The position numbers and the translations under genes are program-made. A DNA stretch of 64,000 nt from Patescibacteria group bacterium. Its GTDB lineage: Bacteria; Patescibacteriota; Minisyncoccia; Minisyncoccales; JAHCRE01. This document shows positions 19,115 to 62,974 of this stretch, piece by piece. The stretch lies in NCBI GenBank assembly GCA_020148145.1, contig JAHCRE010000011.1, forward strand, positions 3,360-67,359, in the 5' to 3' direction. The notes below the pieces were generated by a model. That model was given only the letters and a program-made list of their open reading frames with translations, searched no databases and was not told the DNA's origin. Within the stretch, counting starts at the first letter, position 1. Every line of letters starts with the position of its first letter.

Positions 19115-20176
19115 ATGCCGGAATTAGCTATTAATGTTATTAAAATTTTTACTCTGGGAGCAGCTGGATTTATTTTAGCATTTTTACTTACACCGATTTT
19201 AACCCATTTTTTATATAAATATAAACTTTGGCGAAAATCAGTAAGGGAAAGGGCCATTGATAGGGGAGAGGTACCCTTTTTTAAAAAATTTCATGGAAAA
19301 GAAGAAATTAGTATTCCGAGATTTGGAGGCTTACTTATCTGGGTAACAACTCTGATTTTAATTTTTTTATTTTTCATAATCTCAAAATTTACTGACATTT
19401 GGTGGCTTAAAAAACTAAATTTTTTAAGCCGAGGACAAACTTGGTTGCCTCTATTTACCTTAGTTGCAGCTTCTCTGTTAGGGCTGGTTGATGATATTTT
19501 ACAGGTTTTTGGCAAAGGGAAATATGTTGGTGGGGGATTGAGCCTTAAAACCCGCCTTATTTTGGTTTTCTTAATTGGTCTGATTGGTGCCTGGTGGTTT
19601 TATTCAAAACTTGACTGGACAACTCTGCATATTCCGGGAATAGGGGATTTTAAAATTGGAATCTGGTACATACCTTTTTTCATTTTGGTGATGATGGCAA
19701 CTTATTCAGGAGGAGTAATTGATGGGCTAGATGGTTTAGCCGGTGGAATTTTTGCCACGATTTTTGGAGCCTACTCAGCAATTGCCCTATTTTTAGGCCA
19801 GATTGATTTAGCTGCCTTCTCGGCTGTAATTTTGGGAACAATCTTGGCTTTTTTGTGGTTTAATATTCCGCCGGCCAGATTTTATATGGGAGAAACAGGA
19901 ATTTTAGGACTTTGTGCCACTTTAACCGTTATTGCCTTTTTAACTGATTCAGTGTTGGTTTTGCCAATAATTGGATTTTTATTAGTCATTGAATCGGGAT
20001 CAGTAATTTTACAGCTCCTTTCCAAGAAATTTCGCAAGAAAAAACTATTTTTAGCTGCCCCAATCCATCATCACTTTGAAGCCAAAGACTGGCCCCACTA
20101 CAAAGTCACAATGCGATTTTGGGTTATCGGAATTGTAATGGCAATTATAGGAATAGCTATCAGATTGCTTGGATAA
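19115..20176 (+). CDS. mraY: phospho-N-acetylmuramoyl-pentapeptide transferase
   Basis: 10-TM pattern, DDILQ.., DGLDGLAGG, PIHHHFE. Confidence 0.9.
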   Translation: MPELAINVIKIFTLGAAGFILAFLLTPILTHFLYKYKLWRKSVRERAIDRGEVPFFKKFHGKEEISIPRFGGLLIWVTTLILIFLFFIISKFTDIWWLKKLNFLSRGQTWLPLFTLVAASLLGLVDDILQVFGKGKYVGGGLSLKTRLILVFLIGLIGAWWFYSKLDWTTLHIPGIGDFKIGIWYIPFFILVMMATYSGGVIDGLDGLAGGIFATIFGAYSAIALFLGQIDLAAFSAVILGTILAFLWFNIPPARFYMGETGILGLCATLTVIAFLTDSVLVLPIIGFLLVIESGSVILQLLSKKFRKKKLFLAAPIHHHFEAKDWPHYKVTMRFWVIGIVMAIIGIAIRLLG

Positions 20177-20201
20177 TATGTAAAACCGTCACAAAAGAAA
20201 A

Positions 20202-20400
20202 ATAACCCAAAATCGGAGAGGGGCGATAGGGGAACTGGGTGTTCCCCCGAGGTGGAAGTATTGAAACCGCAAGGTTTCAAGGAGCGGAGCGAAGCCCCAA
20301 AGGGGGCGCTCGAGCGAAGCGCGAGAGAGCGGAGCGACGATTTTGGGTAATTGCCATTGTAATGGCAATTATAGGAATAGCTATTAGACTTTTGGGCTGA
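20202..20400 (+). repeat. GC-rich structured element (family GCE-1) plus diverged duplicate of the mraY 3' end
   Basis: 20202-20215 is the reverse complement of mraY 20114-20127; GC core 20216-20337; 20338-20400 repeats mraY 20114-20176 (52/63 nt identical). Confidence 0.8.
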
Positions 20401-34959: not shown

Positions 34960-34967
34960 GGCAAAAA

Positions 34968-35639: not shown

Positions 35640-37190
35640 ATGGCGAAAAGATTTAACAAAACTGACAAAGTTGTAATAGAACCAAAAGAAGAATTTGCTT
35701 ATGGATATATCATCAAAGCTTTAGCAGGAGGACTATACCCAAACAAGTTTCATGTTATTAGAGAATATATTCAGAATGCTTTTGATGCAGTAGTTAATTG
35801 GAAAGATACTCATAATGGCTCAAATGTTATTGTAAAAATAACAGTTAAAAAGCCCTCTATATTTATATTTGACAACGGAACAGGCATGAATAGGGTTACG
35901 CTTAACGAGTACAGGAAAGTAGGATATTCAAGGAAAAAAATAGGCGAGGCTGTTGGATTTAGGGGCATAGGGAAACTAGCCGGTATTTCAGTGGCCAGAA
36001 AATTAATAGTTACAACAAGTCCTTATGGCGTTAAAGAAAAATACGCTCTGGAATTTGATGCCGAGAGAATGCTTAAAGAGATCGATGATTTAAAAAAACG
36101 TAAGCAGAACATACCCCTCAATACACTGATAGAAAAATATACGAACATAAGCTCCGATGTCGAAAAGGCAGACAAGCATTATACATTTATAGAGCTTCAT
36201 GGAATAAAGCAGGATTCGAAGATTCTTTTTGATAAAAATAAGCTAAAAGACTACATTTCGAAAAATACACCCGTTCCTTTTGATCCAAACTTTGTTTACG
36301 GAAAAGAAATCGAAGATGGAATTAAGAAATTAGTTGATGACTATAACTGCGTAAATATTTTTGTAGACGGTGATAATATCTATAAGCCTTACATTCCGAA
36401 CCTAAACAATCCTAGACACATCGTAGTCTGGGAAAAAAACAAAACAAAAATATTAGGATACTGCTGGTATTGCGAAAACAAAAAAAGGGGGCAGATAAAG
36501 CCTATTGACAAAGCAGGTTTGGTTTATAGATACAAAAATTTTGCAGTTGGAGACCATGATTTGCCTAGGCGAACATTGTGGGATACTTCTACCCATCTAG
36601 CTTTTTACTTTATAGGGGAGATTTACATTTGTGATAAGAATATGTTACCAACTGCACAAAGAGATGATTTTGAGCAGACATCAGCTCGTAGTAGATTTTA
36701 TAATGAAGGTGTCCAGATTTCAAAGGAAATTAACAGAATAGCTAGGGCAAGTTCTGGAATAAGAAGGGCGTTGCATTATGTCGATGTTGGAAAGAACCTA
36801 ATTTCAGAAGTTAAACAGGACCTTCAGAAGCAGGAGCATTATTTAAAAGACCTCGGTGCGGAAAAAGTCGCACAGATTTACAATGTCATAAAAGGCATAA
36901 AAGAAAGAAAAAAGAATATTCCTAAAAAAAATAAGAAGAATAGAATTCTGGCAGACAAAGTCGTTAAGCAAGGGGAATTGTTGCTTAAGAAATTTGGAGG
37001 TGTCAAAAGATTAAGTAGGGAGTATGATATAACAAGAAAAATCAATCTCAATGCTCAGGCTAAAGATGTATATTCTGTGGCTATCAGAACTCTGAAAGAT
37101 TTTTTTATTGGTAACCAGCAAGAACTAGAAAAGGCGATAAGGCTTTTTCAGAAAAACTTGACGACCTTTTTCTCAAAAAAGAACAAATGA
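35640..37190 (+). CDS. GHKL (Bergerat-fold) ATPase, MORC/paraMORC-like, unknown C-terminal half
   Basis: REYIQNAFDA (N box), FDNGTGM (G1), GFRGIGKLAG (G2); AAGGTCGAA box 36 nt upstream. Confidence 0.75.
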   Translation: MAKRFNKTDKVVIEPKEEFAYGYIIKALAGGLYPNKFHVIREYIQNAFDAVVNWKDTHNGSNVIVKITVKKPSIFIFDNGTGMNRVTLNEYRKVGYSRKKIGEAVGFRGIGKLAGISVARKLIVTTSPYGVKEKYALEFDAERMLKEIDDLKKRKQNIPLNTLIEKYTNISSDVEKADKHYTFIELHGIKQDSKILFDKNKLKDYISKNTPVPFDPNFVYGKEIEDGIKKLVDDYNCVNIFVDGDNIYKPYIPNLNNPRHIVVWEKNKTKILGYCWYCENKKRGQIKPIDKAGLVYRYKNFAVGDHDLPRRTLWDTSTHLAFYFIGEIYICDKNMLPTAQRDDFEQTSARSRFYNEGVQISKEINRIARASSGIRRALHYVDVGKNLISEVKQDLQKQEHYLKDLGAEKVAQIYNVIKGIKERKKNIPKKNKKNRILADKVVKQGELLLKKFGGVKRLSREYDITRKINLNAQAKDVYSVAIRTLKDFFIGNQQELEKAIRLFQKNLTTFFSKKNK

Positions 37191-38059
37191 AATTTATGAA
37201 ACATAGACAGTATGAATCTACCGAAAATAAAGATAGGGTTAGAAAAGAAGATAAGGAGTTGATAGAAAAAGAATTTAAGAAAAAGAAAGCTAAATTATCG
37301 TACCTCGGCATGCCTTCTGGAGAATTGAAAGATATTTTAGAATGGCGAGATTATTTAGACAGATGTACGGCAGTTGAAAATAATTTTGTTCAAAGACATG
37401 AGCTGGCATTAAATGTTGTTCGTTTTAATTTAAATGGTAAAATTGATATTCTTTTTGGAGATATAGACGATATTTTGATAAAGGGGAAAGATAAGTACGA
37501 TAATAAATTGATATTTCCTTATGATATTATATTTCTTGATTATTTCGGCGGCATTTTATATAGAGGACTTAGAAGAGTCAATGCTATAGCTTCTCTTATT
37601 TCTAAACAGAGAGGGAATTCTTTTTTGTTGTTCCTAACTTTTAATCTTAAGGAGAGCAGATATGCTAAGAATACAATCGTGGATACGCTTAGAAAGATTA
37701 AACAGGAGTTGTCAGTATTCTGCTGGGATGAAAAAACAAAAAAACAAATAGTAGAGATTACTAAGTGGTATGAGGATGCGGAAGAGATTTACAGACAGAA
37801 AATATTCGTACCATATTTTATTAAAACTAATGCTGAAAATGTAGGATTTGAAGTGTATGCTTACCCACCTGTCTTTTATGAAGGTTTTAGAAAGAATCCC
37901 ATGTTACATTTCGCTTTCAAGTTAGTACCTGAAGGAAAATTTCCCACAAAGGCAGTGAGCAAGCAGACAATAATTGATATAATAAATCTTGATCTAAAAG
38001 GAGTTTCCAGGGGGATGGTAAGTGTTTTAAAAAAGAGGTCGCCAAATTTAAAAATATAA
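37187..38059 (+). CDS. unknown protein with a Rossmann/SAM-MTase-like motif order
   Basis: LSYLGMPSG .. AVENN .. FGDIDD .. IIFLDYFGG; ATGA overlap with the GHKL stop; no DPPY/NPPY. Confidence 0.55.
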   Translation: MKFMKHRQYESTENKDRVRKEDKELIEKEFKKKKAKLSYLGMPSGELKDILEWRDYLDRCTAVENNFVQRHELALNVVRFNLNGKIDILFGDIDDILIKGKDKYDNKLIFPYDIIFLDYFGGILYRGLRRVNAIASLISKQRGNSFLLFLTFNLKESRYAKNTIVDTLRKIKQELSVFCWDEKTKKQIVEITKWYEDAEEIYRQKIFVPYFIKTNAENVGFEVYAYPPVFYEGFRKNPMLHFAFKLVPEGKFPTKAVSKQTIIDIINLDLKGVSRGMVSVLKKRSPNLKI

Positions 38060-38077
38060 TATATTACACTTTTAAAT

Positions 38078-39193
38078 ATGAACAAAAGAGGCAAAATGAA
38101 AGTCCTATTAGTCGAACCAAATTTCCCAATACCACCCAAAAGTAAGAACCACAGGGATTTTTTGCCTATCGGCTTATTGAAGCTAGCGAGTTATCATAGG
38201 GATAAAGGTGATAAAATAAAGCTTGTTAGGGGCGACCATTATTTTTTTGATTTTTATCCCAATCAAGTAAAAATAACTTCGCTTTTTACATATTGGTTTA
38301 ATTATGTATGGGAGAGTGTAAAGTTCTATAAAGAAAACTATCCGAAGGCCAAAGTAATAGTAGGCGGTATCTACGCGTCATTAATGCCAGAGCATTGCAG
38401 AAAATCAGGTTGCGATGAAGTATTTATTGGAGTGGATAACAAGGTTGAGAAATTCAAGCCTGCTTATGATCTTGTGGATGTGGATTATCAAATTGTCCAT
38501 GCTTCAAGAGGCTGTATTAGGAGGTGCAAATTCTGCGGAACTTGGAAAATCGAACCGAAATTTACTTATAAAAAGAGCATAAAAGATGAGGTATGCAGTA
38601 ATAGGATAATATTTTATGACAATAACCTTTTGGCTAATCCGCACATAAAGGAAATCCTTGAAGAATTGAAAAATGCCAAGCACAACGACAGGGTTGTGTA
38701 TTCGGAAAGCCAATGCGGTATTGACGGAAGGCTTCTGACTCCTGAAGTGGCTAAATTATTAAAACAAGCGAGATTCCTTAATCCAAGGATTGCTTGGGAT
38801 CACGGTTATGCACAAAGGCGTATGATAAAAAAACAGATTGATATGCTTGTTGATGCGGGCTATCCTGCAAAAGAAATTTATGTTTTTATGATTTATAACT
38901 TCGAACAGGATTATTATGAAATGCTGAAAAAGCTGAAGCAATGCAAGGGATGGGGTGTGCAGATAGCTGATTGTAGGTATAGGCCCCTGAATCAAATTTT
39001 TGACAATTACAATCCAAGAGAAAAGCAGACAGACAAGGATTATTTCATATATCCAAAATGGACAGATAGGCAGATAAAGCTCTTCAGGAAAAAAGTAAGG
39101 CAGCAGAATATTATGATAAGACATGGTTTTAGTCTTTATAGTAAAGAGCTGGAAAGATTGGGGGCAAAGAGAAGGATGAATAAGTCCCACTAA
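38078..39193 (+). CDS. B12-binding-domain radical SAM protein
   Basis: N-terminal KVLLVEPN..LPIGLLKLASY Rossmann-like region; ASRGCIRRCKFCGTW (CxxxCxxC). Confidence 0.75.
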   Translation: MNKRGKMKVLLVEPNFPIPPKSKNHRDFLPIGLLKLASYHRDKGDKIKLVRGDHYFFDFYPNQVKITSLFTYWFNYVWESVKFYKENYPKAKVIVGGIYASLMPEHCRKSGCDEVFIGVDNKVEKFKPAYDLVDVDYQIVHASRGCIRRCKFCGTWKIEPKFTYKKSIKDEVCSNRIIFYDNNLLANPHIKEILEELKNAKHNDRVVYSESQCGIDGRLLTPEVAKLLKQARFLNPRIAWDHGYAQRRMIKKQIDMLVDAGYPAKEIYVFMIYNFEQDYYEMLKKLKQCKGWGVQIADCRYRPLNQIFDNYNPREKQTDKDYFIYPKWTDRQIKLFRKKVRQQNIMIRHGFSLYSKELERLGAKRRMNKSH

Positions 39194-40825: not shown

Positions 40826-41782
40826 ATGAAAAAATCAGACAAACCAATTATAAAACATATCCCCGACTTTTTGGATTATTGCGAAATAGAAAAAGGATTA
40901 TCAGAAAAAACTCAAGAGAATTATGATCGCTACCTCCGGAAGTTCGTTTTCTGGCTGAAAAGGACCAAAAAAGAGGCTCTTTTGCCCCACGAGCTAAGTG
41001 CTGATGATATTTGGCATTATAGACTCTATTTATCGAGATATAAGGATAATAAGGGCAAAATCCTTAAAAAAACCACCCAGAACTACTATTTAATCGCTCT
41101 GAGAGCCCTTTTAAGCTATTTTACAGCCAAAGATATAGTTTCACCTCCGGTGGATAAAATAAAGCTCCCAAAGGATGCTAGAAGGGCAAAAACCGTCAAA
41201 TTCCTTAAATTAGAGCAGGTTGAGAAGCTTTTAATGACCCCTAATACTAAAAACAAGATTGGTTTAAGAAACAGGGCTATTTTAGAGACATTATTCTCAA
41301 CCGGCCTAAGAATAGCTGAACTTGTGGCCCTTAATAAAGAACAATTCGCTAATATAAGAAATAAAAAGGATTTGGAGCTTTCAATTATAGGCAAAGGAGA
41401 TGTTCCCCGAACAGTATATTTTTCAGAGCGTGCCTTATCTTGGGTTAAAAAATATTTGGAGACTCGCAAGGATAAGGAAAAAGCCCTATTTATTCATTAT
41501 AGGGCTAGAAAAGACGTAGAATGCCGTTTAACAGCTCGTTCTATAGAAAGAATTGTTAAAAAATATGCAATCTTGGCTGGGGTGCCGATTTTTACTACTC
41601 CCCATACCATCCGCCATTCTTTTGCCACCGATCTCTTAGCGAAAGGCGTTGACTTAAGAACCATACAGGAATTCTTAGGCCACAAAAATATTGTTACCAC
41701 TCAGATATATACCCATGTGACAAGTAAGCGCTTAAGAGACATCCATCGCAAATTTCATAGTGGAAAAAAATTAAAAGAATAA
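40826..41782 (+). CDS. tyrosine recombinase, XerC/XerD family (island integrase or housekeeping Xer)
   Basis: NRAILETLFSTGLRIAELVAL, HTIRHSFATDLL, LGHKNIVTTQIYTHV (R..HxxR..Y). Confidence 0.85.
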   Translation: MKKSDKPIIKHIPDFLDYCEIEKGLSEKTQENYDRYLRKFVFWLKRTKKEALLPHELSADDIWHYRLYLSRYKDNKGKILKKTTQNYYLIALRALLSYFTAKDIVSPPVDKIKLPKDARRAKTVKFLKLEQVEKLLMTPNTKNKIGLRNRAILETLFSTGLRIAELVALNKEQFANIRNKKDLELSIIGKGDVPRTVYFSERALSWVKKYLETRKDKEKALFIHYRARKDVECRLTARSIERIVKKYAILAGVPIFTTPHTIRHSFATDLLAKGVDLRTIQEFLGHKNIVTTQIYTHVTSKRLRDIHRKFHSGKKLKE

Positions 41783-43978: not shown

Positions 43979-44061
43979 AATTTTGAGTTAATAATATTAA
44001 GTTTTTACGATCGACCTTGCTTTAATTATATTAAAAATCATAATTTTCTTTATAGGTAAAT

Positions 44062-45888
44062 CTATCCAGCGCCCCCTCCCCCACCTCCACCACCACCGCC
44101 AGCAGCGCCTCCGACACCACCTACTCCTCCTGTACCTGCTCCTCCGCCAAAAGTTCGGGAAATAGAAGATGTAAAAGAAGAAATGCTTGAAGAAAAAGAA
44201 TTAAAAGATGCTGGAGCACCACCTTTACCACCCCCACCATATGCATAGACAACTGGCACATACCAATTTTGTTTTTGATAAGAAAAATCAGAAAATCTTT
44301 CTGCCCATTTCTTTTCTACACCAAGAATCAAAGCAAAAGGAAGATATTTGGAAAAAGTCTCTAATGTCTCGGCCCCAAGCCTAAACCTCTCAGCCGTTTG
44401 AAGATACTCTTTAAAACCCAGTAATTTCCATTTAGCTTCTAATCCTTTTTGAGTTAAGCTCGGCATATAGTGAGCGAAAATTAAGATAATCGTTGCTGAA
44501 ATAATCAAACTTAATCCAAGAATTGAAATCTGAGCAAAATATCTCACAAGCCCTGTGCCTAAAAGAAAAGACAATATAAGCCAGCCGAAAAAAATGACTA
44601 AAGCCAGAAGGAAAATCTTATTAGAAGTTTTTCCATATTTTTTTCTGACATTAAGGATATTGCCCATAAAATAACCTGTTTCTCCAACTTCTTGATGAAG
44701 TGACTTTTCTATTCCGGGAATCTTCTTATAAAATTTATTTTTCAAATCATCGCTAGAAACCACATTTTTATTTTTAAAAATGTCTCTTATTATTTTTTGT
44801 TCAAAAAGTAAAAGGTCGCTTTCGTCTTTTAACTTCTCGAGAGTGTATTCTCGTGTCTTGAAAATAGAGAAACCTTTTTCTTTTTCTCTAATTCTCAAAT
44901 AACCCCTGACAGCTAAATCAATAATTGTTGCTGTAATATCTTTCATGTGAACGGCCTGGTCAATCAATACTCCGAATACGGCAGGAGGTAAGTTTTCTGG
45001 AGGAGAGTATTGGGCTATAATAGTTTTGCCAATTTTAGGATCTTTACCCCTTTTTCTCCAAAGAATATACATTTTAACAAAAAAGGAAATTGGCAAAGCA
45101 AAAGCAATCAATAAGATTATCCAGTTAATTATCTGGTTGCGATAAAGAAAGGGTTTAGCAACTATTCCCTTGGGCCAAGTTACAACTATGGTCAAAAAAT
45201 TATGCGGCATTATATTATATCCCCAAAATCTAACCGTTTGACTACCAATGACTTGATAATTACTACTTTCGGTTTTACTCCCCAATGGCCCAATAAATAA
45301 TTTTTGCCCTATTTGTTCTCTTTCGATCCCCCTGGGTAAATGAACTACAACTTCGGCCTGCCTTACTTCAACTTCTCTGTCTTCAAAAATAGCATTCCAA
45401 TAAAGCTCATCCCATTTCTCATAAAAACCTAGGCCACCATGAACTTTATACTTTATTGTCCAAGACCTTAACTCGTTATCAAACACTTTCCTGGGAAAGT
45501 TCCATTGAACACTCAATCTGTTTCTTTTGTAGGAGATTTTATACTCATTTTTATCTAATTTTTTCCCTTGGCCATCAAAAACCTCAATATCGGAAATGTG
45601 GTCTAAGTCCTTCAGTTCAATATCACGATAAAAATAACCGAAATCGCCCTTCAGGTTGTAGGTCTGTTTTTCCGTAACATCAAAAGTGCTATCTTGATTA
45701 ATTTGGATATCTACCTCAATTGAGTGATAATAATAACTTTTATTTAAAGCAGCCTGGCAAAAATCATAACTTCCTACTTCTAAAAATAAGAGGGTAAAAA
45801 ATATTAAAAAGAATAATCCTAAACTAAACTTCTTTAATTTTCCATTTATTTTAAACATACCTTTCAATAAAAAATGTTTATACATCAA
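44062..45888 (-). CDS. DUF2207-type membrane protein with Gly-rich C-terminus
   Basis: usual LemA partner; extracellular N-domain, several TMs, terminal GGGGGAG tail. Confidence 0.75.
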   Translation of the reverse strand: MMYKHFLLKGMFKINGKLKKFSLGLFFLIFFTLLFLEVGSYDFCQAALNKSYYYHSIEVDIQINQDSTFDVTEKQTYNLKGDFGYFYRDIELKDLDHISDIEVFDGQGKKLDKNEYKISYKRNRLSVQWNFPRKVFDNELRSWTIKYKVHGGLGFYEKWDELYWNAIFEDREVEVRQAEVVVHLPRGIEREQIGQKLFIGPLGSKTESSNYQVIGSQTVRFWGYNIMPHNFLTIVVTWPKGIVAKPFLYRNQIINWIILLIAFALPISFFVKMYILWRKRGKDPKIGKTIIAQYSPPENLPPAVFGVLIDQAVHMKDITATIIDLAVRGYLRIREKEKGFSIFKTREYTLEKLKDESDLLLFEQKIIRDIFKNKNVVSSDDLKNKFYKKIPGIEKSLHQEVGETGYFMGNILNVRKKYGKTSNKIFLLALVIFFGWLILSFLLGTGLVRYFAQISILGLSLIISATIILIFAHYMPSLTQKGLEAKWKLLGFKEYLQTAERFRLGAETLETFSKYLPFALILGVEKKWAERFSDFSYQKQNWYVPVVYAYGGGGKGGAPASFNSFSSSISSFTSSISRTFGGGAGTGGVGGVGGAAGGGGGGGGGGAG

Positions 45889-51240: not shown

Positions 51241-51687
51241 TTATTTTTCCTCGATAACTATTATTCTTATTTCCGCCTCTAAATTATGTTCAAAATGAAT
51301 TTTAACCGGGAACTCTCCCAATTCTTTAATTGGTTGCGGTAAATCAATCTGGCTCTTTTTAATTTTAAATCCTAATTCTTTTAATTTTTCTGAAATTTTT
51401 TGGACATTAATTGACTCAAAAAGCTGACCTTCTGGGCCAATTTTAACAGGAATTATAACCTCCCGGCCATCAATGGTAGAAACAAAATCTTGGATCTTCT
51501 TTAATTCTTCTTCGGCTTTTTTTAATTCAATCTCTTTTTGAGTTTTAAGCCATTTTAAGGCCTCTCTTGTTGCCTGCTTTACTAATCCTTTAGGAATCAA
51601 AAAGTTTCGGGCATAACCATCCTTTACTTCTTTAATTTCATACTTTTTGCCGAGATTTTCAATATTTTTAAGAAGAATTACCCGCAT
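51241..51687 (-). CDS. rplI: 50S ribosomal protein L9
   Basis: MRVILLKNIENLGKKYEIKEVKDGYARNFLIPKGL. Confidence 0.9.
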   Translation of the reverse strand: MRVILLKNIENLGKKYEIKEVKDGYARNFLIPKGLVKQATREALKWLKTQKEIELKKAEEELKKIQDFVSTIDGREVIIPVKIGPEGQLFESINVQKISEKLKELGFKIKKSQIDLPQPIKELGEFPVKIHFEHNLEAEIRIIVIEEK

Positions 51688-51701
51688 ATTAGATTATTTT
51701 A

Positions 51702-51914
51702 TTATAAATCTTTAATTATTTCAATCGCTTTATTTAGTTGTGGATCGCATCCGTCGCTCCGCTCTCTCTCGCTTCGCTCGAGCGCCCCCTTTGGGGCTTC
51801 GCTTCGCTCCTTAGAAACCCTCGGTTTCTAACGCTCGACCTTCGGCCTCCCTGTTTTCCTACACGGGAGGATACCCAATCCTCCCGACCCCTCCTGTGAG
51901 ATCGCGATCCACAA
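51702..51914 (-). repeat. GC-rich element (GCE-1) plus diverged duplicate of the S41-protease 3' end
   Basis: 51900-51914 is the exact reverse complement of 51951-51965; GC core 51749-51899; 51702-51748 repeats the last 15 codons of the protease gene. Confidence 0.8.
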
Positions 51915-53099
51915 TTATAATTGCTTAACTACTTCAATTGCTTTACCTAGTTGTGGATCGCGATCTTCCTCATAGTCCTCGAGAGTCATCTCCACTTCTA
52001 TATCGGGTTCAAGCCCCTGGTCAGTAATGAGCTCGCCTTTTGGGGTCAACCATTTGGCTACTGTAATTTTTAAAGAAGAGCCTCCTTTTAATTCTTCCAG
52101 TTCCTGGATAGAGCCTTTACCAAAAGAAGTTTCCCCAATTATTTTTATGCCTCGATTATCTCGTAGCGCACCAGCTAAAATTTCTGATCCCGAAGCCGAC
52201 CCCTGATTAATTAAGATAACGGTTGGATGGGGTAAAAGCCAGGAATTCCCTCCGGCTTTATATTCCTTTTTCTCTTTACCAACACCGAAATCTTCAATTA
52301 CCACTACATCTCCTCTTTCTAAAAACCAACCGGCAATATCCTGGGCCACCTCCAAATAGCCCCCGGGATTATTCCTTAAATCCAAAATTATCTTTTTTGC
52401 TGGACTATCTAAAATCTCAATAGCTGCCTTCTTAAAATCTAAACTTGCCTTTTCAGAAAACTGATAGATTTCTAAGTGGGCAATATCTCCTTCAATTAAT
52501 TCCCATTTTAAAGAAGGAATTTCAATTACTGCTCTCACAATTTTAATTTCCTTTGGTTCTTCCCAACCTTCCCGAAAAATTGTTAAGGTAACCTCAGTTC
52601 CCTCTGGGCCCCTAATGAGTGAAACTGCCTCATTAATTGTTAAATCAGCAGTTAAAATATCTTCAACTTTTAAAATTTTATCGCCCGATCTCAAACCAGC
52701 CTTTTGAGCCGGTGTTCCTTTCAATGGAGCGATTATTAAAAGTTGACCTTTTTTAATTCCGATTTCAGCCCCAATTCCTTCAAAAACCCCTTTGACTTCC
52801 TCAATAAATTTTTCTGTTTCTTCAGGATCCAAAAAAATAGTATAGGGATCATCTAGAGACCTTACCATTCCCGAAATTGCCCCATAAATCATTTGCTGAA
52901 TATCAAACTTCTGAGGCTCAGCAAATTTCTCTTCCAAAACTTCCCAGGCCTCCCAGAAAAGAGAAAAATCAAGTTCTTCGGGTGGACAAACTGGACAAAC
53001 CACCTGTAATTCTCCAAATAAAAAACCTAAGCCAAAACTCACTAAGATTCCGACCACTAAAAAAACAAAAATTATTCTTTTCTTACTAAAAATTGGCAT
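51915..53099 (-). CDS. C-terminal processing peptidase (S41) with PDZ domain
   Basis: PDZ (GTPAQKAGLRSGDKILKV), GSASGSEILAGAL, GKGSIQ. Confidence 0.85.
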   Translation of the reverse strand: MPIFSKKRIIFVFLVVGILVSFGLGFLFGELQVVCPVCPPEELDFSLFWEAWEVLEEKFAEPQKFDIQQMIYGAISGMVRSLDDPYTIFLDPEETEKFIEEVKGVFEGIGAEIGIKKGQLLIIAPLKGTPAQKAGLRSGDKILKVEDILTADLTINEAVSLIRGPEGTEVTLTIFREGWEEPKEIKIVRAVIEIPSLKWELIEGDIAHLEIYQFSEKASLDFKKAAIEILDSPAKKIILDLRNNPGGYLEVAQDIAGWFLERGDVVVIEDFGVGKEKKEYKAGGNSWLLPHPTVILINQGSASGSEILAGALRDNRGIKIIGETSFGKGSIQELEELKGGSSLKITVAKWLTPKGELITDQGLEPDIEVEMTLEDYEEDRDPQLGKAIEVVKQL

Positions 53100-53319: not shown

Positions 53320-54231
53320 TTATCTAAGGGAATTGATAATTTTCTCTGCAATTGCAATGGCTATTGCTTTCTGGGTTTCTTTAGTTTGCGCCCCTATGTG
53401 AGGGGTACAAACTACATTTGGTAATTTTACTAATTCTGAATTTTCGGGCGGTTCAACTTCGTAAACATCTAATGCCGCTCCTCTCAGTTTTCCGGATTTT
53501 AGCGCTTGTAAAAGAGCCTTTTCATCCACAACTGAACCTCTAGATGTGTTGATTAAGCAAGCTCCCTTTTTCATAAATTGAAACTCCTTTGTCCCAATCA
53601 TGTGAAAGGTTTGCTCGGTTAATGGAACATGTAGCGTGATTACATCGCTTCTTTGTAATGATTCTTTGAGTGGAACGAATTCTGCTTCAAGTTCTTTTAG
53701 TAACTCTGGGCTCGGCGGATTCCGTTTTGTAATAAGTATTTTCATTCTTAAAGCTTTCGCTATCTCAGCTACTCTCTTGCCAACGTTTCCCAAGCCTATT
53801 ATGCCAAGAGTTTTATCTTTCAGCTGCCAACCCATCAGTTCCTCCTTAATCCACTTTCCCTCCTTTATGGCCCGGTCAGCAGATGGGATATTTCGCGCTA
53901 ACGAAATCATCAATCCTATTGTTAGTTCGGCAGCGGCTTGGGCAATGGCTTCTGACGTATTTAAAACAATGATTCTTCTTTTTTTCGCAGCCTCCATATC
54001 AATGTTGTCTAAGCCTCCACCAGCCCGACCTATAACTTTTAGTTGCCATCCAGCTTTAATGATTTCCTTTGTAATTTTGGTCCGACTTCGCACGATTAGT
54101 GCATCGTAGCCTGAAACTACTTTTTTTAACTGCTCAGAGGAAATCGTAGGGTTTAGGTCAACTTCGAAACCTGCTTTTTGCAACCTTTCTATCCCTGCCT
54201 TATGAATTGGGTCACAGATAAGAACCTTCAA
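53320..54231 (-). CDS. D-isomer-specific 2-hydroxyacid dehydrogenase (PGDH-like), paralog of 56862-57764
   Basis: GIIGLGNVGKRVA (NAD), RGSVVDEKAL, TPHIGAQT; TTG start with AAGGTG SD. Confidence 0.8.
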   Translation of the reverse strand: MKVLICDPIHKAGIERLQKAGFEVDLNPTISSEQLKKVVSGYDALIVRSRTKITKEIIKAGWQLKVIGRAGGGLDNIDMEAAKKRRIIVLNTSEAIAQAAAELTIGLMISLARNIPSADRAIKEGKWIKEELMGWQLKDKTLGIIGLGNVGKRVAEIAKALRMKILITKRNPPSPELLKELEAEFVPLKESLQRSDVITLHVPLTEQTFHMIGTKEFQFMKKGACLINTSRGSVVDEKALLQALKSGKLRGAALDVYEVEPPENSELVKLPNVVCTPHIGAQTKETQKAIAIAIAEKIINSLR

Positions 54232-54406
54232 TATTTTTCACCTTCTTTAAAAAAGAACTATTTTGATTATAGCATTACTCAAAATTTTTTCAATATTTAG
54301 TTGGTTAGTTATTTCACGAGCTTAAAATAAAAAACGCCAGAAAATGGCGCTTTATTATAGAAAAAAAGGGGGGATTGAAGTGTTTTATCTTCGGGGGCTT
54401 GAATTT

Positions 54407-56482
54407 TTATGACGGCGGTGTCCATGGTGGGGCTACATAGCCAAACTGTTTTGCTATGACTACTACATCGAAGATGTCGATTATCTGGTCCTGTTTTAGG
54501 TCAGCTCTAGAGTTCCATTCTGGACGTGACTCGCCTGGTAGATAGTATGATCCGAAGGCCTTCGCCATGACGACTATATCGAAGATGTCCACAGATCCGT
54601 CCGAGTTTAAGTCCTCTGCAGGAAGGTCCTCTTTCCACATTGGATAGAAGTCGATGCCTGGATATAATGGGTCGTGGTCCCATCCTTGAACCCAGTCCCT
54701 CTCCCAGTGACGATCCAAAGGGTTGTCCAACGGAACGCTTGGACAATCCTCAATGTAGATTTCTTGAAGTTCAGAGTAGATTGCTTTTCTTATTTCTAGA
54801 TCCGTTTCCATTTCTCCCTTTTCGACCAGTTCGTCAACGACAGAATTGTTGTATCCTTGCAATACTGCGAAAGTTCCATAGCTGTACATAAACGGGGAGA
54901 TGAAGTTATGTGGATCTGTAGAGCCAGCGAACATATTAGTAAACCAAACCGGTAACTCCGTAAAGTCATTCGATACTTCCACAACATCGATGTGAAATTT
55001 CGGGTTTAGGCTCTCAATGTTCATCTCCAGAAATTGGCACGCCATCCCCATCTCTATGTTTCCCAGCTCGTAACAGATGGCCATTGTGAAGCCGTTGGCC
55101 CACAGTTGTCCACCCCAAGCACTTCTGAAGTGTTCTTCTGCTTTGGCAAAGTCAAGATAGTATCCGAATTGACTCAGACCCTGATCATAACCAAGTATCT
55201 CTGGTATTATGGGTGTAACTATCTGATACGCTTCTCTCATGCACACTTCTTCGATGAACATATCGTAGTCAAAGCTGTAGGCAAAGGCCTTCCTAACGTC
55301 AATGTCGCTAAAGAAATCCGGTGGAATTCCTGATTCATCTAATGTGCCTGGAGATAATCCTCCTGGTACACCCATGTATGGACTCGTCGTCGATATCTTG
55401 AAGTTGAAGAACATGGCATCAACAGAGAATGTAGGTAGAGGATAGACGCAACGTATCCCTGGTTGTCCAAAAAGTTCTTCGGCATACATCCTTGGAACAT
55501 CTATTATATCAAGGTCGCCAGCTAAGAACATTAGTTTTCTTGTGGACCATTCTGGGATTATCTCACCTTCAATCACATTGCAATAACCCCGAGAATCCTC
55601 AGCCGGCCACCCAGAATGATAGGCTTCGAATTTTTTCAATCTCCATCTTATTCCTGGTTCCCAGAAGTCTAATTCCCAGGGACCAGTTCCATTCATTTTA
55701 GGGTCGTCGGGCTCTTCTGGTTTTGGTTCTTCAGGCTTACTAAGGTTATAATCAAGGGGCGATTTCTTGTCCTTTAACAAGTTACCGTATTTTTTGACCC
55801 ATTCGGTTATTTTTTTTGGGTCAACTCCAAGCCCAGGGAACTCTCCGCTCTGTTTTAGTAACCAACTCTTAGGCATTATCGACGCGCTTCTGTGTTTCAA
55901 CAGACGATGAAACGTCTTTGTCAAAGTATACATCTTCTTCTTAAAGTGAAAAATGATGCGGTTCTCTTTAACTTTTATTGCTTCATTTATTAATTCTAAG
56001 ATTTTCTTCGCTTTTTCTTCATCTTTCAAATCATCAAGAGAGAGCTGTTTCTTATCAAAGAACTGTAAGAGCTGTTCCTTATCAATCAGAAGATCAAGAA
56101 GATTTGCTGCTGTATTATGACCTTCTATCGCCAGTCCCATTATCATTAACCTGGCTAAGGAGTGCTTTACGTCCTCTGCGGTCAGAGTTTCTTCGCCGTG
56201 AAATTTAACGTCTTTTTTTATTTCTACCATGGCCTTCTGATTATCTTTGGACCACTCGAGACCATCTTTTGTAATAAGTGCGTATTTTTTCTTTCTTTTA
56301 CTTAACAATGTTTCATAGACATTGGATACAAGGTCGCTTTCTTGTTTAAGGTCAAGGGCCGGATCACAGGTTTTAGGGTCGCTCCTGCCTACTTTTACTT
56401 TCTCCTTGTTTTTCTGCGCTTGAACTGAAACTTCGAATTGAAGACAGATCGAAAGCAGTAGCATCAAAGCCAAAGCCAACAT
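54407..56482 (-). CDS. family-5 ABC substrate-binding-like protein with C-terminal dockerin-type repeats
   Basis: SBP_bac_5-like length and pattern; DLNSDGSVDIFDIVVMAKAFG and DLKQDQIIDIFDVVVIAKQFG; visibly higher G+C than the surroundings. Confidence 0.7.
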   Translation of the reverse strand: MLALALMLLLSICLQFEVSVQAQKNKEKVKVGRSDPKTCDPALDLKQESDLVSNVYETLLSKRKKKYALITKDGLEWSKDNQKAMVEIKKDVKFHGEETLTAEDVKHSLARLMIMGLAIEGHNTAANLLDLLIDKEQLLQFFDKKQLSLDDLKDEEKAKKILELINEAIKVKENRIIFHFKKKMYTLTKTFHRLLKHRSASIMPKSWLLKQSGEFPGLGVDPKKITEWVKKYGNLLKDKKSPLDYNLSKPEEPKPEEPDDPKMNGTGPWELDFWEPGIRWRLKKFEAYHSGWPAEDSRGYCNVIEGEIIPEWSTRKLMFLAGDLDIIDVPRMYAEELFGQPGIRCVYPLPTFSVDAMFFNFKISTTSPYMGVPGGLSPGTLDESGIPPDFFSDIDVRKAFAYSFDYDMFIEEVCMREAYQIVTPIIPEILGYDQGLSQFGYYLDFAKAEEHFRSAWGGQLWANGFTMAICYELGNIEMGMACQFLEMNIESLNPKFHIDVVEVSNDFTELPVWFTNMFAGSTDPHNFISPFMYSYGTFAVLQGYNNSVVDELVEKGEMETDLEIRKAIYSELQEIYIEDCPSVPLDNPLDRHWERDWVQGWDHDPLYPGIDFYPMWKEDLPAEDLNSDGSVDIFDIVVMAKAFGSYYLPGESRPEWNSRADLKQDQIIDIFDVVVIAKQFGYVAPPWTPPS

Positions 56483-56629
56483 TATAGCTTTTTTGTTCGT
56501 TACTTTTTCCTCCTTTTCTATTTATTTTGTCAAATAGCCAATTACTTTCTTACCATTTTCAAGAAAAAAAGTCAATATTTTATCAATTCGAATTAGCAAA
56601 ACCTCGCTCAAAGCGAGGTTTTTAGCTTG

Positions 56630-56700
56630 TGCCCCCACCCCGACTTGAACGGAGATTTACTGCTTAAAAGGCAGTTACTCTACCATTGAGTTATGGGGGC
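56630..56700 (-). tRNA. tRNA-Lys (anticodon UUU)
   Basis: hand-folded cloverleaf: GCCCCCA/TGGGGGC acceptor, ACTC/GAGT D-stem, ACTGC-CTTTTAA-GCAGT, CTCCG-TTCAAGT-CGGGG; 71 nt, CCA not encoded. Confidence 0.85.
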
Positions 56701-56702
56701 TT

Positions 56703-56803
56703 AGTCGCTCCGCTCCCTCTCGCTCGCTTTACTTGCTCGAGCGCTCGCCTTCGGCTCGCTTCGCTTCGCTCCTGGACCCCTTTCTTCAAAAGAAAGGTGT
56801 CCA
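56703..56803 (-). repeat. GCE-1 3' module plus H1 hairpin, abutting the tRNA-Lys 5' end
   Basis: minus strand TGGACACCTTTCTTTTGAAGAAAGGGGTCCA-GGAGCGAAGCGAAGCGAGCC..GAGGGAGCGGAGCGAC-TAA-tRNA. Confidence 0.7.
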
Positions 56804-56861
56804 ACCTCCAAAGAAATATAAGGTAAAAATTATTTTAGATGAACTTGCTGTCATTCTCTTC

Positions 56862-57764
56862 CTAAGAGGACTTTTTTATTGCTTCGCTTATTATTCTTAC
56901 TACTTCCTCGCCTATTCTTTCTTGAGCTTCTTTAGTAGAAGCGCCAATATGCGGGGTAAAAGTTAAATTCGTTAGTTTAATTAATTCTGAAACTTTTAGT
57001 GGTTCAACCTCAAATACATCAAGACCTGCACCTGCAATTTCTTTGTTTTTTAAAGCGTCGATTAAAGCGTTTTCGTCGACAACACAACCTCTAGCTGCAT
57101 TTATTAGGATAGCAGTAGATTTCATCTTTGAAAATTCATTCTTACTAATCATATGTCTAGTCTCATCGGTTAAGGGCGTGTGAACAGAAACATAATCCGA
57201 TTTCCGCAAAAGTTCATCAAGAGTCACCATCTCTATCTGTTCCACTTTAGTATATGGGTCATATCCAATCACCCTCATACCCAGTCCTTTTCCAAGTTGT
57301 GCTAATTCTCTGCCAATTCTCCCTAATCCTATGATTCCTAATATTTTCCCGTATAACTCTTGCCCTTTTAGTTCTTTCTTTTCCCATTTTCCTTTTTTTA
57401 TCCCGGTAGTACCCCTGACAATATGTCTGGACAGAGCGAACATATGAGCTAAAGCTAATTCGGCAACAGAAATAGATGAGGCGGCAGGAGTGTTAAACAC
57501 CTTTATCCCTCTCTTTTTAGCATGAGCAACATCTATATTATCAAGGCCGACCCCACCCCTTATTATCAGTTTCATATTATCCATCTTGTCTATCATATTC
57601 TTTTGAACCTTTGTCGCACCCCTGACAACCATAAAATCATAACCTTCTACCTTATCTGTTAATTCCTCTTTTGGCAACGACGAAAAGTCAGAAACCTCCA
57701 AGCCTAATTTTTTTAATTTCTCTATAGCGCTCTTAATTATGGAATCTGCTATCAATACTTTCAT
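56862..57764 (-). CDS. serA: D-3-phosphoglycerate dehydrogenase-like (short form)
   Basis: GIIGLGRIGRELA, ARGCVVDENAL, TPHIGAST; directly downstream of the class-V aminotransferase. Confidence 0.75.
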   Translation of the reverse strand: MKVLIADSIIKSAIEKLKKLGLEVSDFSSLPKEELTDKVEGYDFMVVRGATKVQKNMIDKMDNMKLIIRGGVGLDNIDVAHAKKRGIKVFNTPAASSISVAELALAHMFALSRHIVRGTTGIKKGKWEKKELKGQELYGKILGIIGLGRIGRELAQLGKGLGMRVIGYDPYTKVEQIEMVTLDELLRKSDYVSVHTPLTDETRHMISKNEFSKMKSTAILINAARGCVVDENALIDALKNKEIAGAGLDVFEVEPLKVSELIKLTNLTFTPHIGASTKEAQERIGEEVVRIISEAIKKSS

Positions 57765-60112: not shown

Positions 60113-62017
60113 TTATTTTTCTTTAAATTCTCCTTCCTCAGCTGTAGGTTCATCTTCTTTTGGTTTTTCTTTCGGTTTTTCAGGGCTGGCTTTTTTGTAC
60201 ATCTCAGCTCCAATTTTTTGAATTGCCTGAGATAATTCTTGGGTCTTATTTTTTATTTCCTCTATATTATCACCTTCTTTTACTCCTTTCAAATCTTTAA
60301 CTTTTTCCTCAACTTCCTTTTTTGTCTCTGAAGAAATTTTATCTCCGGCCTCTTTCAGGGTCCTTTCGGTGGTATAGATTAAATTATCAGCCAAGTTTTT
60401 AGCTTCGCTTAATTCTCGCTTTTTACGATCTTCTTTTGCATGTAATTCTGCTTCTTTTTTCATTTTCTCTATCTCTTCTTTTGATAAACCTATTGATCCC
60501 TCAATTCTAATCGACTGAGAGCGAGAGGTTCCCTTATCTTTGGCTGTAACAGTTAAAATTCCATTAGCATCAATATCAAATTTCACTTCAACTTGGGGAA
60601 TTCCTCTTGGAGCAGGCGGAATTCCATCTAAAATAAACCTTCCCAATGACCTATTATTAGTTGCCATTGACCTTTCCCCTTGCAAAACATTTACTTCAAC
60701 CGATGTCTGACTATCAGCTGCAGTTGAAAATATTTGAGTTTTTGCTGTAGGAATAGTGGTATTTTTGGAAATCATGGCTGTATTTATTCCACCCAAGGTC
60801 TCAATTCCAAGAGAAAGCGGTAAAACATCCAACAAAAGAACACTCTTTATTTCTCCTTCTGGCGCTCTTCCCTCTTCCTTTGCTCTCAAAATCTCTCCCT
60901 GAATAGCTGCTCCCATTGCCACTACTTCTTCAGGATTAATAGTTTTGTTAGGCTCTTTGCCAAAAAAATTCTTAACCGCCTCTCTAACAGCTGGAGTTAA
61001 AGTTGTACCTCCAACCAAAATAACTTCATCGATGTCGTCTTTACTTAATTTTGCCTCTTTTAAGGTTTTTTTCACTCTTTCAATTGATCTTTCAACCAAA
61101 TCTCGGGTCTGGTTCTCCAGCTGAGCCCTTTTCAATTTATAATACAAATGCTTTGGCCCCGAAGTATCTGAGGAAATAAATGGGAGGTTAATTTCTGTTT
61201 CTATTGCCGAAGATAATTCTATTTTCGCATTTTCGGCTGCCTCTTTTAATCTTTGTAAAGCCAAGGGGTCTTTTGATAAATCAATTCCTTGATCTTTTTT
61301 AAATTGCCCAACTATCCAGTCAATTATTCTCTGGTCAAAGTCATTTCCCCCTAAATGAGCCTCTCCGCCGGTAGCTAAAACTTCAACTGTATCTGGAGCC
61401 ACATTCAAAATTGTCACATCAAAAGTTCCTCCTCCAAAGTCATAAACAACAACTTTTTCTGGCTTTTTCTTTCCCAATCCATAAGTCAGAGCAGCTGCCG
61501 TAGGCTCATTAATAACTCTCAAAACTTTAAATCCGGCAATTTCTCCGGCTGTTTTAGTTGTTTTTCTTTGGGAGTCATCGAAATTTGCTGGACAAGTAAT
61601 AACAGCTGTTTCCACTTTCTCGCCTAATTTTTCTTCTGCATCTAATTTTATTTTTTGTAAAATCATTGAGGAAATTTCAATCGCTGTGTGCCATTTATCA
61701 CCCATTTTTATCTCAACCCCACCATCTGCCCTTGCTCTTGTCTCGTAGGGTAAGCGTTTTAGCTCTTTTTGAACTTCGGGGTCAGAGTGTCTTCTACCAA
61801 TAAACCTTTTTACTGCGAAAATAGTATTTTTGGGATTGGTAATTGCTTGCCTTTTGGCTAAAATCCCAACAAGCCTTTCTCCATTTTTTGCCAATGCCAC
61901 AATTGAGGGTATCAGAATTGAACCCTCTCTACTTTCTATACATTTTGGCTCACCTGCTAAGATGGTGGCCATCTTTGAAATTGAGGTCCCTAAATCAATA
62001 CCTAGTACTTTACTCAT
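60113..62017 (-). CDS. dnaK: chaperone DnaK (start moved to [11 protein letters not shown])
   Basis: [27 protein letters not shown]; the track N-terminal extension lies in the GC-rich element. Confidence 0.9.
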
Positions 62018-62023
62018 AGTTAG

Positions 62024-62253
62024 TTCGCGGCACGACTCGCTCACTTTGTTCGCTCGTCTAACACCGCTCTTTAAAAACCCTAGGACGGAAGTTTCCGCAG
62101 AGCTAAGAACTCTCGCGTCCCTTCGGTTTTTAATATTTTCCTATACGGGAGAGCCGGAAGGTTCTCCCAGACGGGGCTTTCCGACTCAACCCGCTTCGCA
62201 GGTTTCGCGGAGAAGCCTCGCGTCTTGGCCGACCCCCTTCCGATATGGGGGTG
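62024..62253 (-). repeat. ~230-bp GC-rich structured element (GCE-1-related) between the AAGGTCGAA box and the dnaK start
   Basis: shares TTTTCCTA(C/T)ACGGGAG..CTCCC with 51860-51890; many GC hairpins; boundaries approximate. Confidence 0.65.
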
Positions 62254-62278
62254 TTAAATTTTAATTCGACCTTTGAAA

Positions 62279-62974
62279 TTATTTATTAATCAAATCAACA
62301 GCGTAGTTAGTAGGTCTACAAATTCCCATATTTGCTGGAATATCAAACTTTTTTCCACTAGGTAACGAAGCCCGTTGAGATATCCTACCACTTGTTACCC
62401 CTATAACTTTTCCGCTATCCAGGGAAAATACTGGTGAACCACTTGAGCCTTTATTAATGTGAGTATCGATCATAAAGAAATGTAGCGAGCCATCTTTGCC
62501 ACGTCTCTTCACTGAACTAATAATACAGTGGTTTGTGTTCATTGTAATCCCAAATTTCATACCTAATAGTACTGTAGCCAAAGGATATCCTATAAAAACA
62601 ACCTCATCCCCTTCTTTAACTGATTCTGAATCACCGAATCCTTCAATTGTTTCAAAATTATTCTTATCGGAAATTATTTGCATTAAAGCTAAATCGTTCT
62701 CTTCGTCTTTGTCTAATAATTTCACTTTGTATCTGTCATAATGCGTTATCCCTTTTTCATCGGTTTTACCCGGCACTGAAACCTCCAGATAACGAAGTTC
62801 GTTTTCAGGAATGTTTTTATATACATGCCAACAAGTTAAAAATTTACCATCATGAGAAACTATAAAACCAGTCCCTCTAATACTTACTTTGCCTTGATTT
62901 TTCTCTCCAGGTATATAGAGGGCCACTAAAATAATTGGTTTTTTATTTTGTTCTATAATTTGACTGATTTTCAT
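62279..62974 (-). CDS. trypsin-like serine protease
   Basis: CWHV (His), NDLALM (Asp), KGSSGSPVF (Ser). Confidence 0.75.
   Translation of the reverse strand: MKISQIIEQNKKPIILVALYIPGEKNQGKVSIRGTGFIVSHDGKFLTCWHVYKNIPENELRYLEVSVPGKTDEKGITHYDRYKVKLLDKDEENDLALMQIISDKNNFETIEGFGDSESVKEGDEVVFIGYPLATVLLGMKFGITMNTNHCIISSVKRRGKDGSLHFFMIDTHINKGSSGSPVFSLDSGKVIGVTSGRISQRASLPSGKKFDIPANMGICRPTNYAVDLINK

Follow-up and report, generated by a model that had tools for sequence, protein, structure and literature searches.

Genomic islands mobilised by tyrosine integrases sit in the 3' ends of tRNA, tmRNA or protein-coding genes and bring with them a replacement for the end of the gene. A mobile open reading frame (ORF) in the mitochondrial atp6 gene of Allomyces, ascribed to Paquin, Laforest and Lang in 1994, reportedly carries a replacement gene end, and external-guide-sequence (EGS) complexes are said, after work by Forster and Altman in 1990, to be substrates of RNase P. 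The locus considered here is the 3' end of an S41 (C-terminal processing) peptidase gene in a 64,000-nucleotide (nt) stretch of DNA from a Patescibacteria group bacterium (contig JAHCRE010000011.1, positions 3,360 to 67,359), which is referred to as the window. At this locus a block consisting of a gene end (B'), a guide-like arm (G) and a GC-rich core separates the S41 codons GATCGCGATCCACAA from the resident gene end; the S41 gene is intact because the block carries its own version of the last codons. We put at about even the chances that the S41 insertion belongs to a Patescibacteria family of small mobile elements, GC-rich, structured and non-coding, that are non-autonomous and guide-bearing; the element is real, widespread and of an apparently undescribed kind.

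At the S41 site all coordinates are read on the minus strand (Table 1). The peptidase ORF, with Pfam matches to Peptidase_S41 and PDZ, keeps its reading frame through the element-borne end, and its product is 100% identical to a protein of a public collection (P0001). An earlier note, written from the letters alone, had reported an exact 15-nt reverse complement directly after the stop, and this was confirmed: G is the perfect complement of the coding segment A, from which it is separated by B', 36 nt long with its TAA stop included. In a repeat search the pairing of the two arms reached 19 nt (95% complementarity) across a 30-nt gap, and 10 of the 15 bases of A (GATCGCGATC) form a palindrome in themselves. 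The core proper is 142 nt long (51894-51753) and non-coding, and is followed by a second copy of the gene end (A2 and B2; 51748-51702), which the same search returned as a 48-nt direct repeat at 83% identity and which stops 15 nt short of the rplI ATG (51687). The window A2 bears a 1-nt deletion, and G can pair with it at 11 of 15 positions. The GC-rich core, the second C-terminus 15 nt before rplI and a related copy at mraY are thus all present as the earlier note had described them, except that a comparison of the two 3' modules gives 2 differences in 59 positions and not 3. Between the two gene-end copies, at the S41 and mraY sites, lie about 165-225 nt without protein coding. Local GC content at the S41 element is 0.50-0.52, against 0.357 for the whole window. 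A 43-nt core pattern occurred twice in the window at up to 3 mismatches and not at all in 100 shuffles, and by our own estimate a perfect 15-nt inverted repeat within 60 nt is expected by chance some 1e-3 to 1e-2 times per 64 kb; chance is therefore no explanation for the S41 structure.

The source genome of the window looks Nealsonbacteria-like. Four orthologous S41 loci were compared with the window: L060, L062, L063 and L064. Neither G nor the core was present at the L060 and L064 sites, where the S41 stop is followed by a short spacer and rplI, whereas L062 and L063 are filled at the same site; the S41 element is thus an insertion. In L062 the downstream copy of the gene end runs directly into a spacer that matches that of the empty L060 site, and because B2 continues straight into intergenic sequence known from an empty site, B2 is the resident host gene end. 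The two filled loci encode proteins that are 94.7% identical (P0019 and P0030), the empty ones proteins 85-87% identical to these (P0002 and P0003), and the window protein, also from a filled site, is 76% identical to those of L062 and L063; empty and filled sites coexist among relatives whose S41 proteins are 84-95% identical. The upstream ends read LEEAIKIIEKL-stop in L063 and LDKAIEIIKQL-stop in L062, so that B' differs by about 30%, and G and the core subtype differ as well, whereas the distal part of B2 and the intergenic sequence are identical between the two. For that reason B' is a diverged, functional-looking homologue that travels with the element, and no fresh copy of the resident end. 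The A and G arms of L062 carry a compensatory change (CCGCAG/TTGCGG, against CCACAA/TTGTGG in the window). The block of B', G and core is gained, lost or replaced independently of host phylogeny. The earlier note had argued for an active, target-templated process; activity and complementarity to the target are supported, but re-templating at each insertion is not supported at established sites, where the arms travel with the element. A hairpin already present at the target before insertion was ruled out as an origin of the arms, the empty L060 and L064 sites being devoid of G.

The same design, an arm together with a duplicate, was found in 15 copies at about nine different targets: S41, mraY, an FtsZ-like gene end (...QWEIPAFLRR), ends reading ...EWAYACRLAEFAE and ...GGYKYHGRVKAL, RNase HI and three others. 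The claim that one core with locus-specific arms stands at unrelated genes is borne out across many assemblies. In all 15 copies examined the duplicate begins 0-1 nt after the core end GGAGCGAC; it is 19-111 nt long, and the segment that it duplicates lies 40-114 nt 5' of the core. An arm of 12-15 nt flanks the core on its 5' side and is the reverse complement of the sequence with which the duplicated segment begins, and the linker after this guide strand reads NCA(N)A. At mraY the inverted repeat is 14 nt long at 100% and the direct repeat 51 nt long at 90% (repeat search). Across nine copies the helix of G with A2 was 85% paired, versus 38-52% when the partner was slid by 1-3 columns, with changes on both sides at 11 of the 14 pairs, and in minimum-free-energy folds this helix closed the core in nearly all gene-end copies. 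Matched arm changes were also seen at orthologous sites (TTTATATCCTCC/GGAGGATATAAA versus ATTTGTAGCCTCC/GGTGGCTACAAAT). Because G fits the upstream A better than the downstream A2 in 8/8 loci where A and A2 differ, the run from A through B' to G is a coherent hairpin unit. Counted from the first base of A to the last of G, spans group into three classes: some 34 nt in L033, L041 and L044, some 64 nt at the S41 site, and some 100 nt in mraY, L014, the L015 type, L030 and the L036 type. These are roughly multiples of 33, in a small sample.

The duplicate had been described as a second C-terminus. Direct duplicates at 15 copies uphold the duplication itself, but not its restriction to C-termini or to the sense strand: in L030 the duplicate comprises the start codon and N-terminus of a gene for RNase HI that is encoded on the opposite strand. 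This case indicates that the duplication is a DNA-level consequence of insertion, kept where it preserves the gene, and no C-terminal or sense-strand device. A separate observation concerns L033 (4660-4900, plus strand), where the duplicated unit is itself a terminator-like hairpin (CCATTATGGTTTGG-TATTTT-CCAAACCATAATGG), so that the "guide" is simply its second arm, and where the downstream copy is a hairpin too.

When upstream and downstream copies were compared at 11 loci, 62 codon differences were synonymous and 33 non-synonymous. Both copies look, from this pattern, to have evolved as coding sequence, like working gene ends. Neutral decay of B2 after a simple duplication was ruled out, 65% of differing codons being synonymous against an expectation of about 38% (pooled, non-independent loci). 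The window B2 (DPQLNKAIEIIKDL) is nearer to the family consensus DPQLDKAIEIIKNL than is B', and the codon pattern agrees with separate histories of B' and B2, each as a real end in a different genome, before they were joined. Taken by itself the pattern would leave expression of B2 possible; an in-frame TGA at the second codon of the L048 downstream copy and the 1-nt deletion in the window A2 count against it. B2 may serve another end, since it contains a promoter-like sequence (Table 1): the displaced resident end may double as the promoter of rplI, which may add to the constraint on B2.

Table 1. Coordinates of the elements and genes discussed, with the state of the S41 site in four relatives.
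Feature	Position	Strand	Basis or remark
S41 (C-terminal processing) peptidase gene	51915..53099	-	ORF list, Pfam
A, coding segment GATCGCGATCCACAA; 5' arm of hairpin and start of upstream gene-end copy	51951..51965	-	
B', last 11 codons and TAA of the expressed gene (LGKAIEVVKQL-stop); gene end travelling with the element	51915..51950	-	
G, guide-like arm TTGTGGATCGCGATC, directly 3' of the stop; exact reverse complement of A	51900..51914	-	
5-nt linker TCACA and GC-rich structured core (GGAGGGGTC...GGAGCGGAGCGAC)	51753..51899	-	Alignments, nhmmer E=6e-34, covariation, fold z-score -4.8
GGAT (4 extra bases), then A2 (GCGATCCACAA), then B2 (DPQLNKAIEIIKDL-stop), the displaced resident S41 end	51702..51752	-	
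Promoter-like TTGAAA-17-TAAAAT within B2, just 5' of rplI	51696..51724	-	10/12 consensus positions, consensus match alone
rplI (ribosomal protein L9), downstream gene	51241..51687	-	Pfam Ribosomal_L9_N and Ribosomal_L9_C
mraY sister copy	20114..20400	+	A 20114-20127; stop 20176; G 20202-20215; core 20216-20338; second C-terminus 20338-20400
Diverged copy, 5' hairpin and 3' module ending GGAGCGGAGCGAC	56704..56830	-	3 nt 5' of tRNA-Lys(UUU) 56629-56700; without guide or duplicate
Leader-type relative, just 5' of dnaK ATG	~62038..62245	-	Shares 5' half of core; two inserted hairpins, different 3' half
L060 (P0002)			S41 site empty: stop, 39 nt, rplI ATG
L064 (P0003)			S41 site empty: stop, 13 nt, rplI ATG
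L062 (P0030)			S41 site filled: TAG, TTGCGGATCGCGATC-TCACA-core-GGAGCGAC, then GATTGCGACCCTCAG...TTATAG
L063 (P0019)			S41 site filled: short core subtype, different arm (GGATCACGATTC)

A single gapped pattern retrieved 24 true copies of the core from low-GC (0.32-0.43) contigs of two large collections, and a profile search (nhmmer) added more diverged ones, two of which lie in the window, bringing the number of family copies there to four; the family was met in about 25 low-GC contigs, and contigs other than the window's hold up to 3-5 copies per 10-14 kb. A pattern scan of genome contigs gave 12 matches, 11 of them chance hits in GC-rich genomes and only one (L005) real, and two patterns run against viral contigs found no real copies. 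Cores range from 113 to 175 nt and are made up, in order, of the following: a covarying hairpin (GGGAGGA/TCCTCCC, GGGGAAC/GTTCCCC and others), GTRTAGGAAAA and an optional hairpin; then a hairpin formed by TTAGAAACC/GGTTTCTAA or variants of these, followed by GGAGCGRAGCGAAGC, another, small hairpin and GCGCTCGAGC; and finally a variable stretch and the invariant GAGAGRGAGCGGAGCGAC, up to the invariant 3' end ...GGAGCGAC. Folding energies were 4.8-5.3 standard deviations below those of shuffled sequences, and the core hairpins covary across family alignments; RNAalifold on one MAFFT alignment (A1) gave a poor consensus in which the variable hairpins were misaligned, and a hand-specified structure with pair counts was used instead. 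With the whole window searched at gathering thresholds, Rfam 15 returned only tRNA-Lys, and at E values up to 10 the regions 51600-52050 and 61980-62300 gave only chance-level matches to FsrA, MIR393 and sX12 (15-17 bits, against thresholds of 60-106). A literature search found no description of such an element, only unrelated group I introns in Patescibacteria tRNAs.

GCGAAGC units recur within the core, for example at 51769-51809 on the minus strand (GGAGCGAAGCGAAGC and GAGCGAAGCGAG). This heptamer forms an unusually stable mini-hairpin in single-stranded DNA, and the units might hint at an element that acts in that form. Two other GC-rich stretches of the window are unrelated to the core. 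One, at 6152-6290 (plus strand, GC 0.64), forms several hairpins just 3' of the ORF 5086-6147, has no Rfam match at gathering thresholds and may be another unannotated structured RNA; the other, a GC peak of 0.72 at 44042-44172 (minus strand), encodes the glycine-rich, low-complexity C-terminal tail of a DUF2207 membrane protein and holds no core copy.

The two diverged window copies, which the earlier note did not list, stand before tRNA-Lys and before dnaK. The core abuts tRNA position +1 exactly in 3/4 tRNA-adjacent cases (L017, L023 and L057; Thr, Thr and Ile), the tRNA-Lys copy being 3 nt off, and none of these copies has an arm or a duplicate. Leader-type relatives, which share the 5' half of the core but have another 3' half, lie 5-25 nt before the ATG of dnaK (in the window and, as an orthologous copy at 464-590 on the plus strand, in L062; the 3' half ends ...GTGCCGCGA or ...GAGGGCGAGCGAT at dnaK), of mreB-like genes and of an rpsN-like gene, and in L032 and L037 copies occupy operon spacers, mostly co-oriented with the genes. 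The earlier note had asked whether a guide and a duplicate accompany each copy: a complementary arm was found at nearly every gene-end copy, but tRNA-adjacent and leader copies have neither arm nor duplicate.

The reading that we prefer, that of a mobile element, could be put into mechanistic terms as follows. The element would spread as a non-autonomous unit whose arm G picks the target by base pairing; the joint would be made at the 5' edge of the paired stretch, and insertion would be coupled to the copying of 20-110 nt of target, either through staggered breaks or through strand-displacement synthesis from the upstream 3' end. If only insertions whose duplicate reaches past the gene end survive, this would account for the position of copies at gene ends. 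Once established, the unit of A, B', G and core would move into the same site of related genomes by recombination through its two gene-homologous flanks, which would account both for the foreign-looking B' ends and for the polymorphism between empty and filled sites. The transcript is predicted to adopt two folds, an A:G hairpin over the last codons, which translating ribosomes would open, or a G:A2 helix that closes the multi-hairpin core. In its geometry the joint between core and A2 corresponds to an RNase P site: a helix of about 12-14 bp (range 11-15 bp) has its 5' edge there, and the tRNA +1 joints occupy the same position; because of this shared geometry, RNA cleavage by RNase P or by the core itself would be expected at the joint, separating the protease mRNA from that of rplI. 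Support for a self-cleaving ribozyme is circumstantial, consisting of the invariant 3' end, the variable closing helix and the conserved junction. A more specific proposal, possible though on the doubtful side, is that of a new class of element, protein-less or mobilised in trans, in which a programmable RNA arm pairs with the target, an RNase P-type or ribozyme site is formed at the 5' edge of the helix, joining takes place there, and the target is copied so that the gene end stays complete.

Several points weigh against the mobile-element reading. The span classes of about 34, 64 and 100 nt are not predicted by random staggered breaks. Among the non-Watson-Crick positions of the arms G-U is not clearly in excess over A-C, so that pairing as RNA and pairing as DNA are indistinguishable. 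The synonymous and non-synonymous counts pool non-independent orthologous loci, and identity between the two gene-end copies is near-perfect beside the joint and decays distally, which calls for an extra process; we can only ascribe this gradient to gene conversion or co-conversion. The many members without arms raise the prospect that the core may primarily be a functional RNA module and no parasite. Among the 30 window ORFs that were scanned there was no reverse transcriptase, transposase or nuclease, the only recombinase being a XerC/D-like integrase (40826-41782), and no autonomous version of the element was found. The model leaves unexplained the origin of a new arm G and a new B' at a new target, and spread between genomes could be passive, via transformation and homologous recombination. 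Fold-back and template-switch schemes that would make G from A were also considered, and none was found that gives the order A, B', reverse complement of A, core.

Two features of the neighbourhood are recorded as side observations. A restriction-modification-like cluster at 32287-39193 (plus strand), made up of an N6/N4 DNA methylase, a PLD-family nuclease-like protein and a HATPase_c_3 protein, is followed by the XerC/D-like tyrosine recombinase on the same strand, and neither is linked to any core copy. The region 53320-57764 (minus strand) holds extra genes between dnaJ and S41, as against the order dnaJ, (HAD), S41, rplI in L060 and L062: two paralogous 2-hydroxyacid dehydrogenases (53320-54231 and 56862-57764), a family-5 solute-binding protein, the tRNA-Lys with its core copy and an aminotransferase.

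If the core were instead primarily a host RNA module, one that processes or stabilises transcripts between cistrons or serves as a leader (a long one processed by RNase P, for example), it would have spread only passively through ectopic recombination, local tandem duplication and transformation, without any guide-directed chemistry of its own for insertion, and G would have been selected afterwards to close the structure. The density of copies in operon spacers and their prevailing co-orientation with genes are what such a module would show, as are the recurrence of leader-type relatives (5' of dnaK in two genomes, 5' of mreB or rpsN in other ones), the exact joint at tRNA position +1, the lack of an enzyme partner in the ORFs scanned and the compensatory change that preserves A:G pairing. 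We nevertheless consider this account unlikely, because perfect arms of 12-15 nt at about nine unrelated targets are hard to select after random insertion, and a duplicate that always starts 0-1 nt from the invariant core end is likewise hard to obtain by selection. The same site is, moreover, filled with different core subtypes in near-identical genomes and empty in relatives, and the L030 element is antisense to the duplicated gene and so cannot act within that mRNA. An intron-like RNA is a different matter: the block would be removed from the transcript, the protease would also be made with the B2 end, and G would be the internal guide sequence. B2 does have an open, consensus-like frame, G can pair with A or A2 in alternative helices, and the core folds like a structured RNA; but no group I or group II model matched even at E values up to 10, and the unspliced mRNA already codes for a complete protein. 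With group I-type splicing at the edge of P1, A and A2 would end up in tandem and the frame would be lost. The window A2 has, in addition, its 1-nt deletion, and L048 has the in-frame TGA at the second codon of its downstream copy. The L030 element is antisense to its gene, and for copies before tRNAs or in leaders there is no exon that could be joined. We regard intron-like removal as very unlikely, and simple group I-type splicing is disfavoured.

The sharp, invariant 3' boundary followed by locus-specific sequence suggested a miniature derivative of the IS200/IS605 type (peel-and-paste, single-stranded DNA), or the omega/reRNA scaffold of a TnpB-like nuclease encoded elsewhere, in which a conserved scaffold ends at the right end of the element and is followed by a locus-specific homing guide. 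The several GCGAAGC motifs would suit such an element through their stable single-stranded mini-hairpins, and the pairing of the 5' arm with the 3' flank resembles the guide/cleavage-site pairing at IS608 ends. However, no tnpA or tnpB was seen among the window ORFs scanned or beside the copies inspected (L032 and L037), whole genomes not having been searched; no conserved 4-5 nt target motif lies 5' of the insertion point or of A across targets; there is no conserved left end and no Rfam match to omega-type RNAs; and IS200/IS605 elements make no target duplication, whereas duplicates here measure 20-110 nt. This origin we hold to be quite unlikely. Least probable, at the limit of what we would entertain, is that the structures are attL/attR scars of integrase-mediated elements that targeted gene ends, carried a replacement end and have since lost their interior. 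The order of gene, element-borne end and displaced resident end is the classic one of islands that target tRNAs and gene ends, and identity is highest at the crossover; but independent deletions would not leave the same core of about 150 nt exactly between the copies at about nine unrelated genes, no integrase is adjacent, protein-determined att specificity cannot account for many targets, and the locus-specific inverted arm has no counterpart in att sites.

Patescibacteria genomes are tiny and have little spare sequence, yet the element is frequent and lies inside the ends of essential genes. If the arm does direct insertion, the system would amount to compact, retargetable, nucleic-acid-guided integration with a built-in sparing of the host gene. 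Should it represent the new class proposed above, it would be a natural, base-pairing-directed insertion system in Patescibacteria that can be retargeted by changing 12-15 nt and whose insertion into essential genes (mraY, ftsZ-like, S41, rnhA) is tolerated. If it is instead a host module, it would rank, within a major bacterial radiation, among the most abundant structured RNAs that still lack annotation, and would mark the sites of operon RNA processing. On either reading, it accounts for "orphan" gene-end fragments and odd C-termini in Patescibacteria genomes.

Judged by the features available, the design appears to match no described mobile element or RNA family that we found. Searches with the Rfam 15 families, among them introns, ribozymes, HEARO/omega RNAs, RNase P, tmRNA and riboswitches, gave no score near a gathering threshold. 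In common with guide-bearing systems (group I and II introns, the omega/reRNA of IS200/IS605 TnpB, and the bridge RNA of IS110), the Patescibacteria element joins a conserved structured scaffold to a short, variable, flank-complementary segment, with a sharp boundary between scaffold and target. It differs in having no Rfam match and no splice-compatible junctions, in that no reverse transcriptase, TnpB or recombinase is associated with its copies (ORFs scanned, copies inspected), and in that its guide, placed 5' of the scaffold and not within it, pairs with the 3' flank and is accompanied by a long target duplication. Assignment to group I introns was rejected, since a cut at the 3' border of A combined with one behind the core would put A and A2 in tandem and shift the frame; no equivalent of P3-P9 was detected in the 113-175 nt core. 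A miniature IS200/IS605 element or TnpB omega RNA was rejected on the missing shared motif 5' of A and the presence of duplicates, and a diversity-generating retroelement on differences that are of all types, mostly synonymous and without adenine specificity; no reverse transcriptase of such an element was found in the ORFs scanned.

Miniature inverted-repeat transposable elements (MITEs), repetitive extragenic palindromes and bacterial interspersed mosaic elements (REP/BIME), Rickettsia palindromic elements and the GC clusters of yeast mitochondria resemble the family in being short, structured, GC-rich repeats of an AT-rich, compact genome, present in many copies, mostly in spacers, and non-autonomous. 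In the Patescibacteria element, unlike these, the sequence of the inverted arms goes with the locus, not with the element, the duplication is of 20-110 nt and not short and fixed, the core forms a junction of several hairpins in which the single-stranded purine tracts are invariant, and no simple palindrome, and the gene is restored by duplication and not by in-frame insertion. A MITE was rejected specifically because the arms differ at every target and complement the local flank, and because the duplicates measure 19-111 nt.

The remaining likenesses are to RNase P substrates and to integrative and homing elements. The core ends exactly where a helix of about 12-14 bp begins, as in RNase P substrates, and in three family members that helix is the tRNA acceptor stem and the joint is tRNA position +1. 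Unlike EGS complexes, the Patescibacteria guide strand is followed by no RCCA (the linker being NCA(N)A), and the guide lies in cis, 5' of the "leader"; a conserved 150-nt leader is, to our knowledge, no feature of known RNase P substrates. With integrative and homing elements the family shares a gene kept intact by a foreign-looking, element-borne end, a resident end displaced downstream as an orphan, and presence or absence that varies among relatives; at the S41 site the gene continues directly into B', B2 continues into the native spacer, and empty sites occur in relatives. There is, however, no integrase gene inside the block, and one core family serves about nine unrelated targets. The Patescibacteria block further differs in being only about 200 nt long and non-coding, in placing one core at many unrelated targets, in its locus-specific inverted arm, and in that the duplicated end may also be an N-terminal one from the opposite strand.

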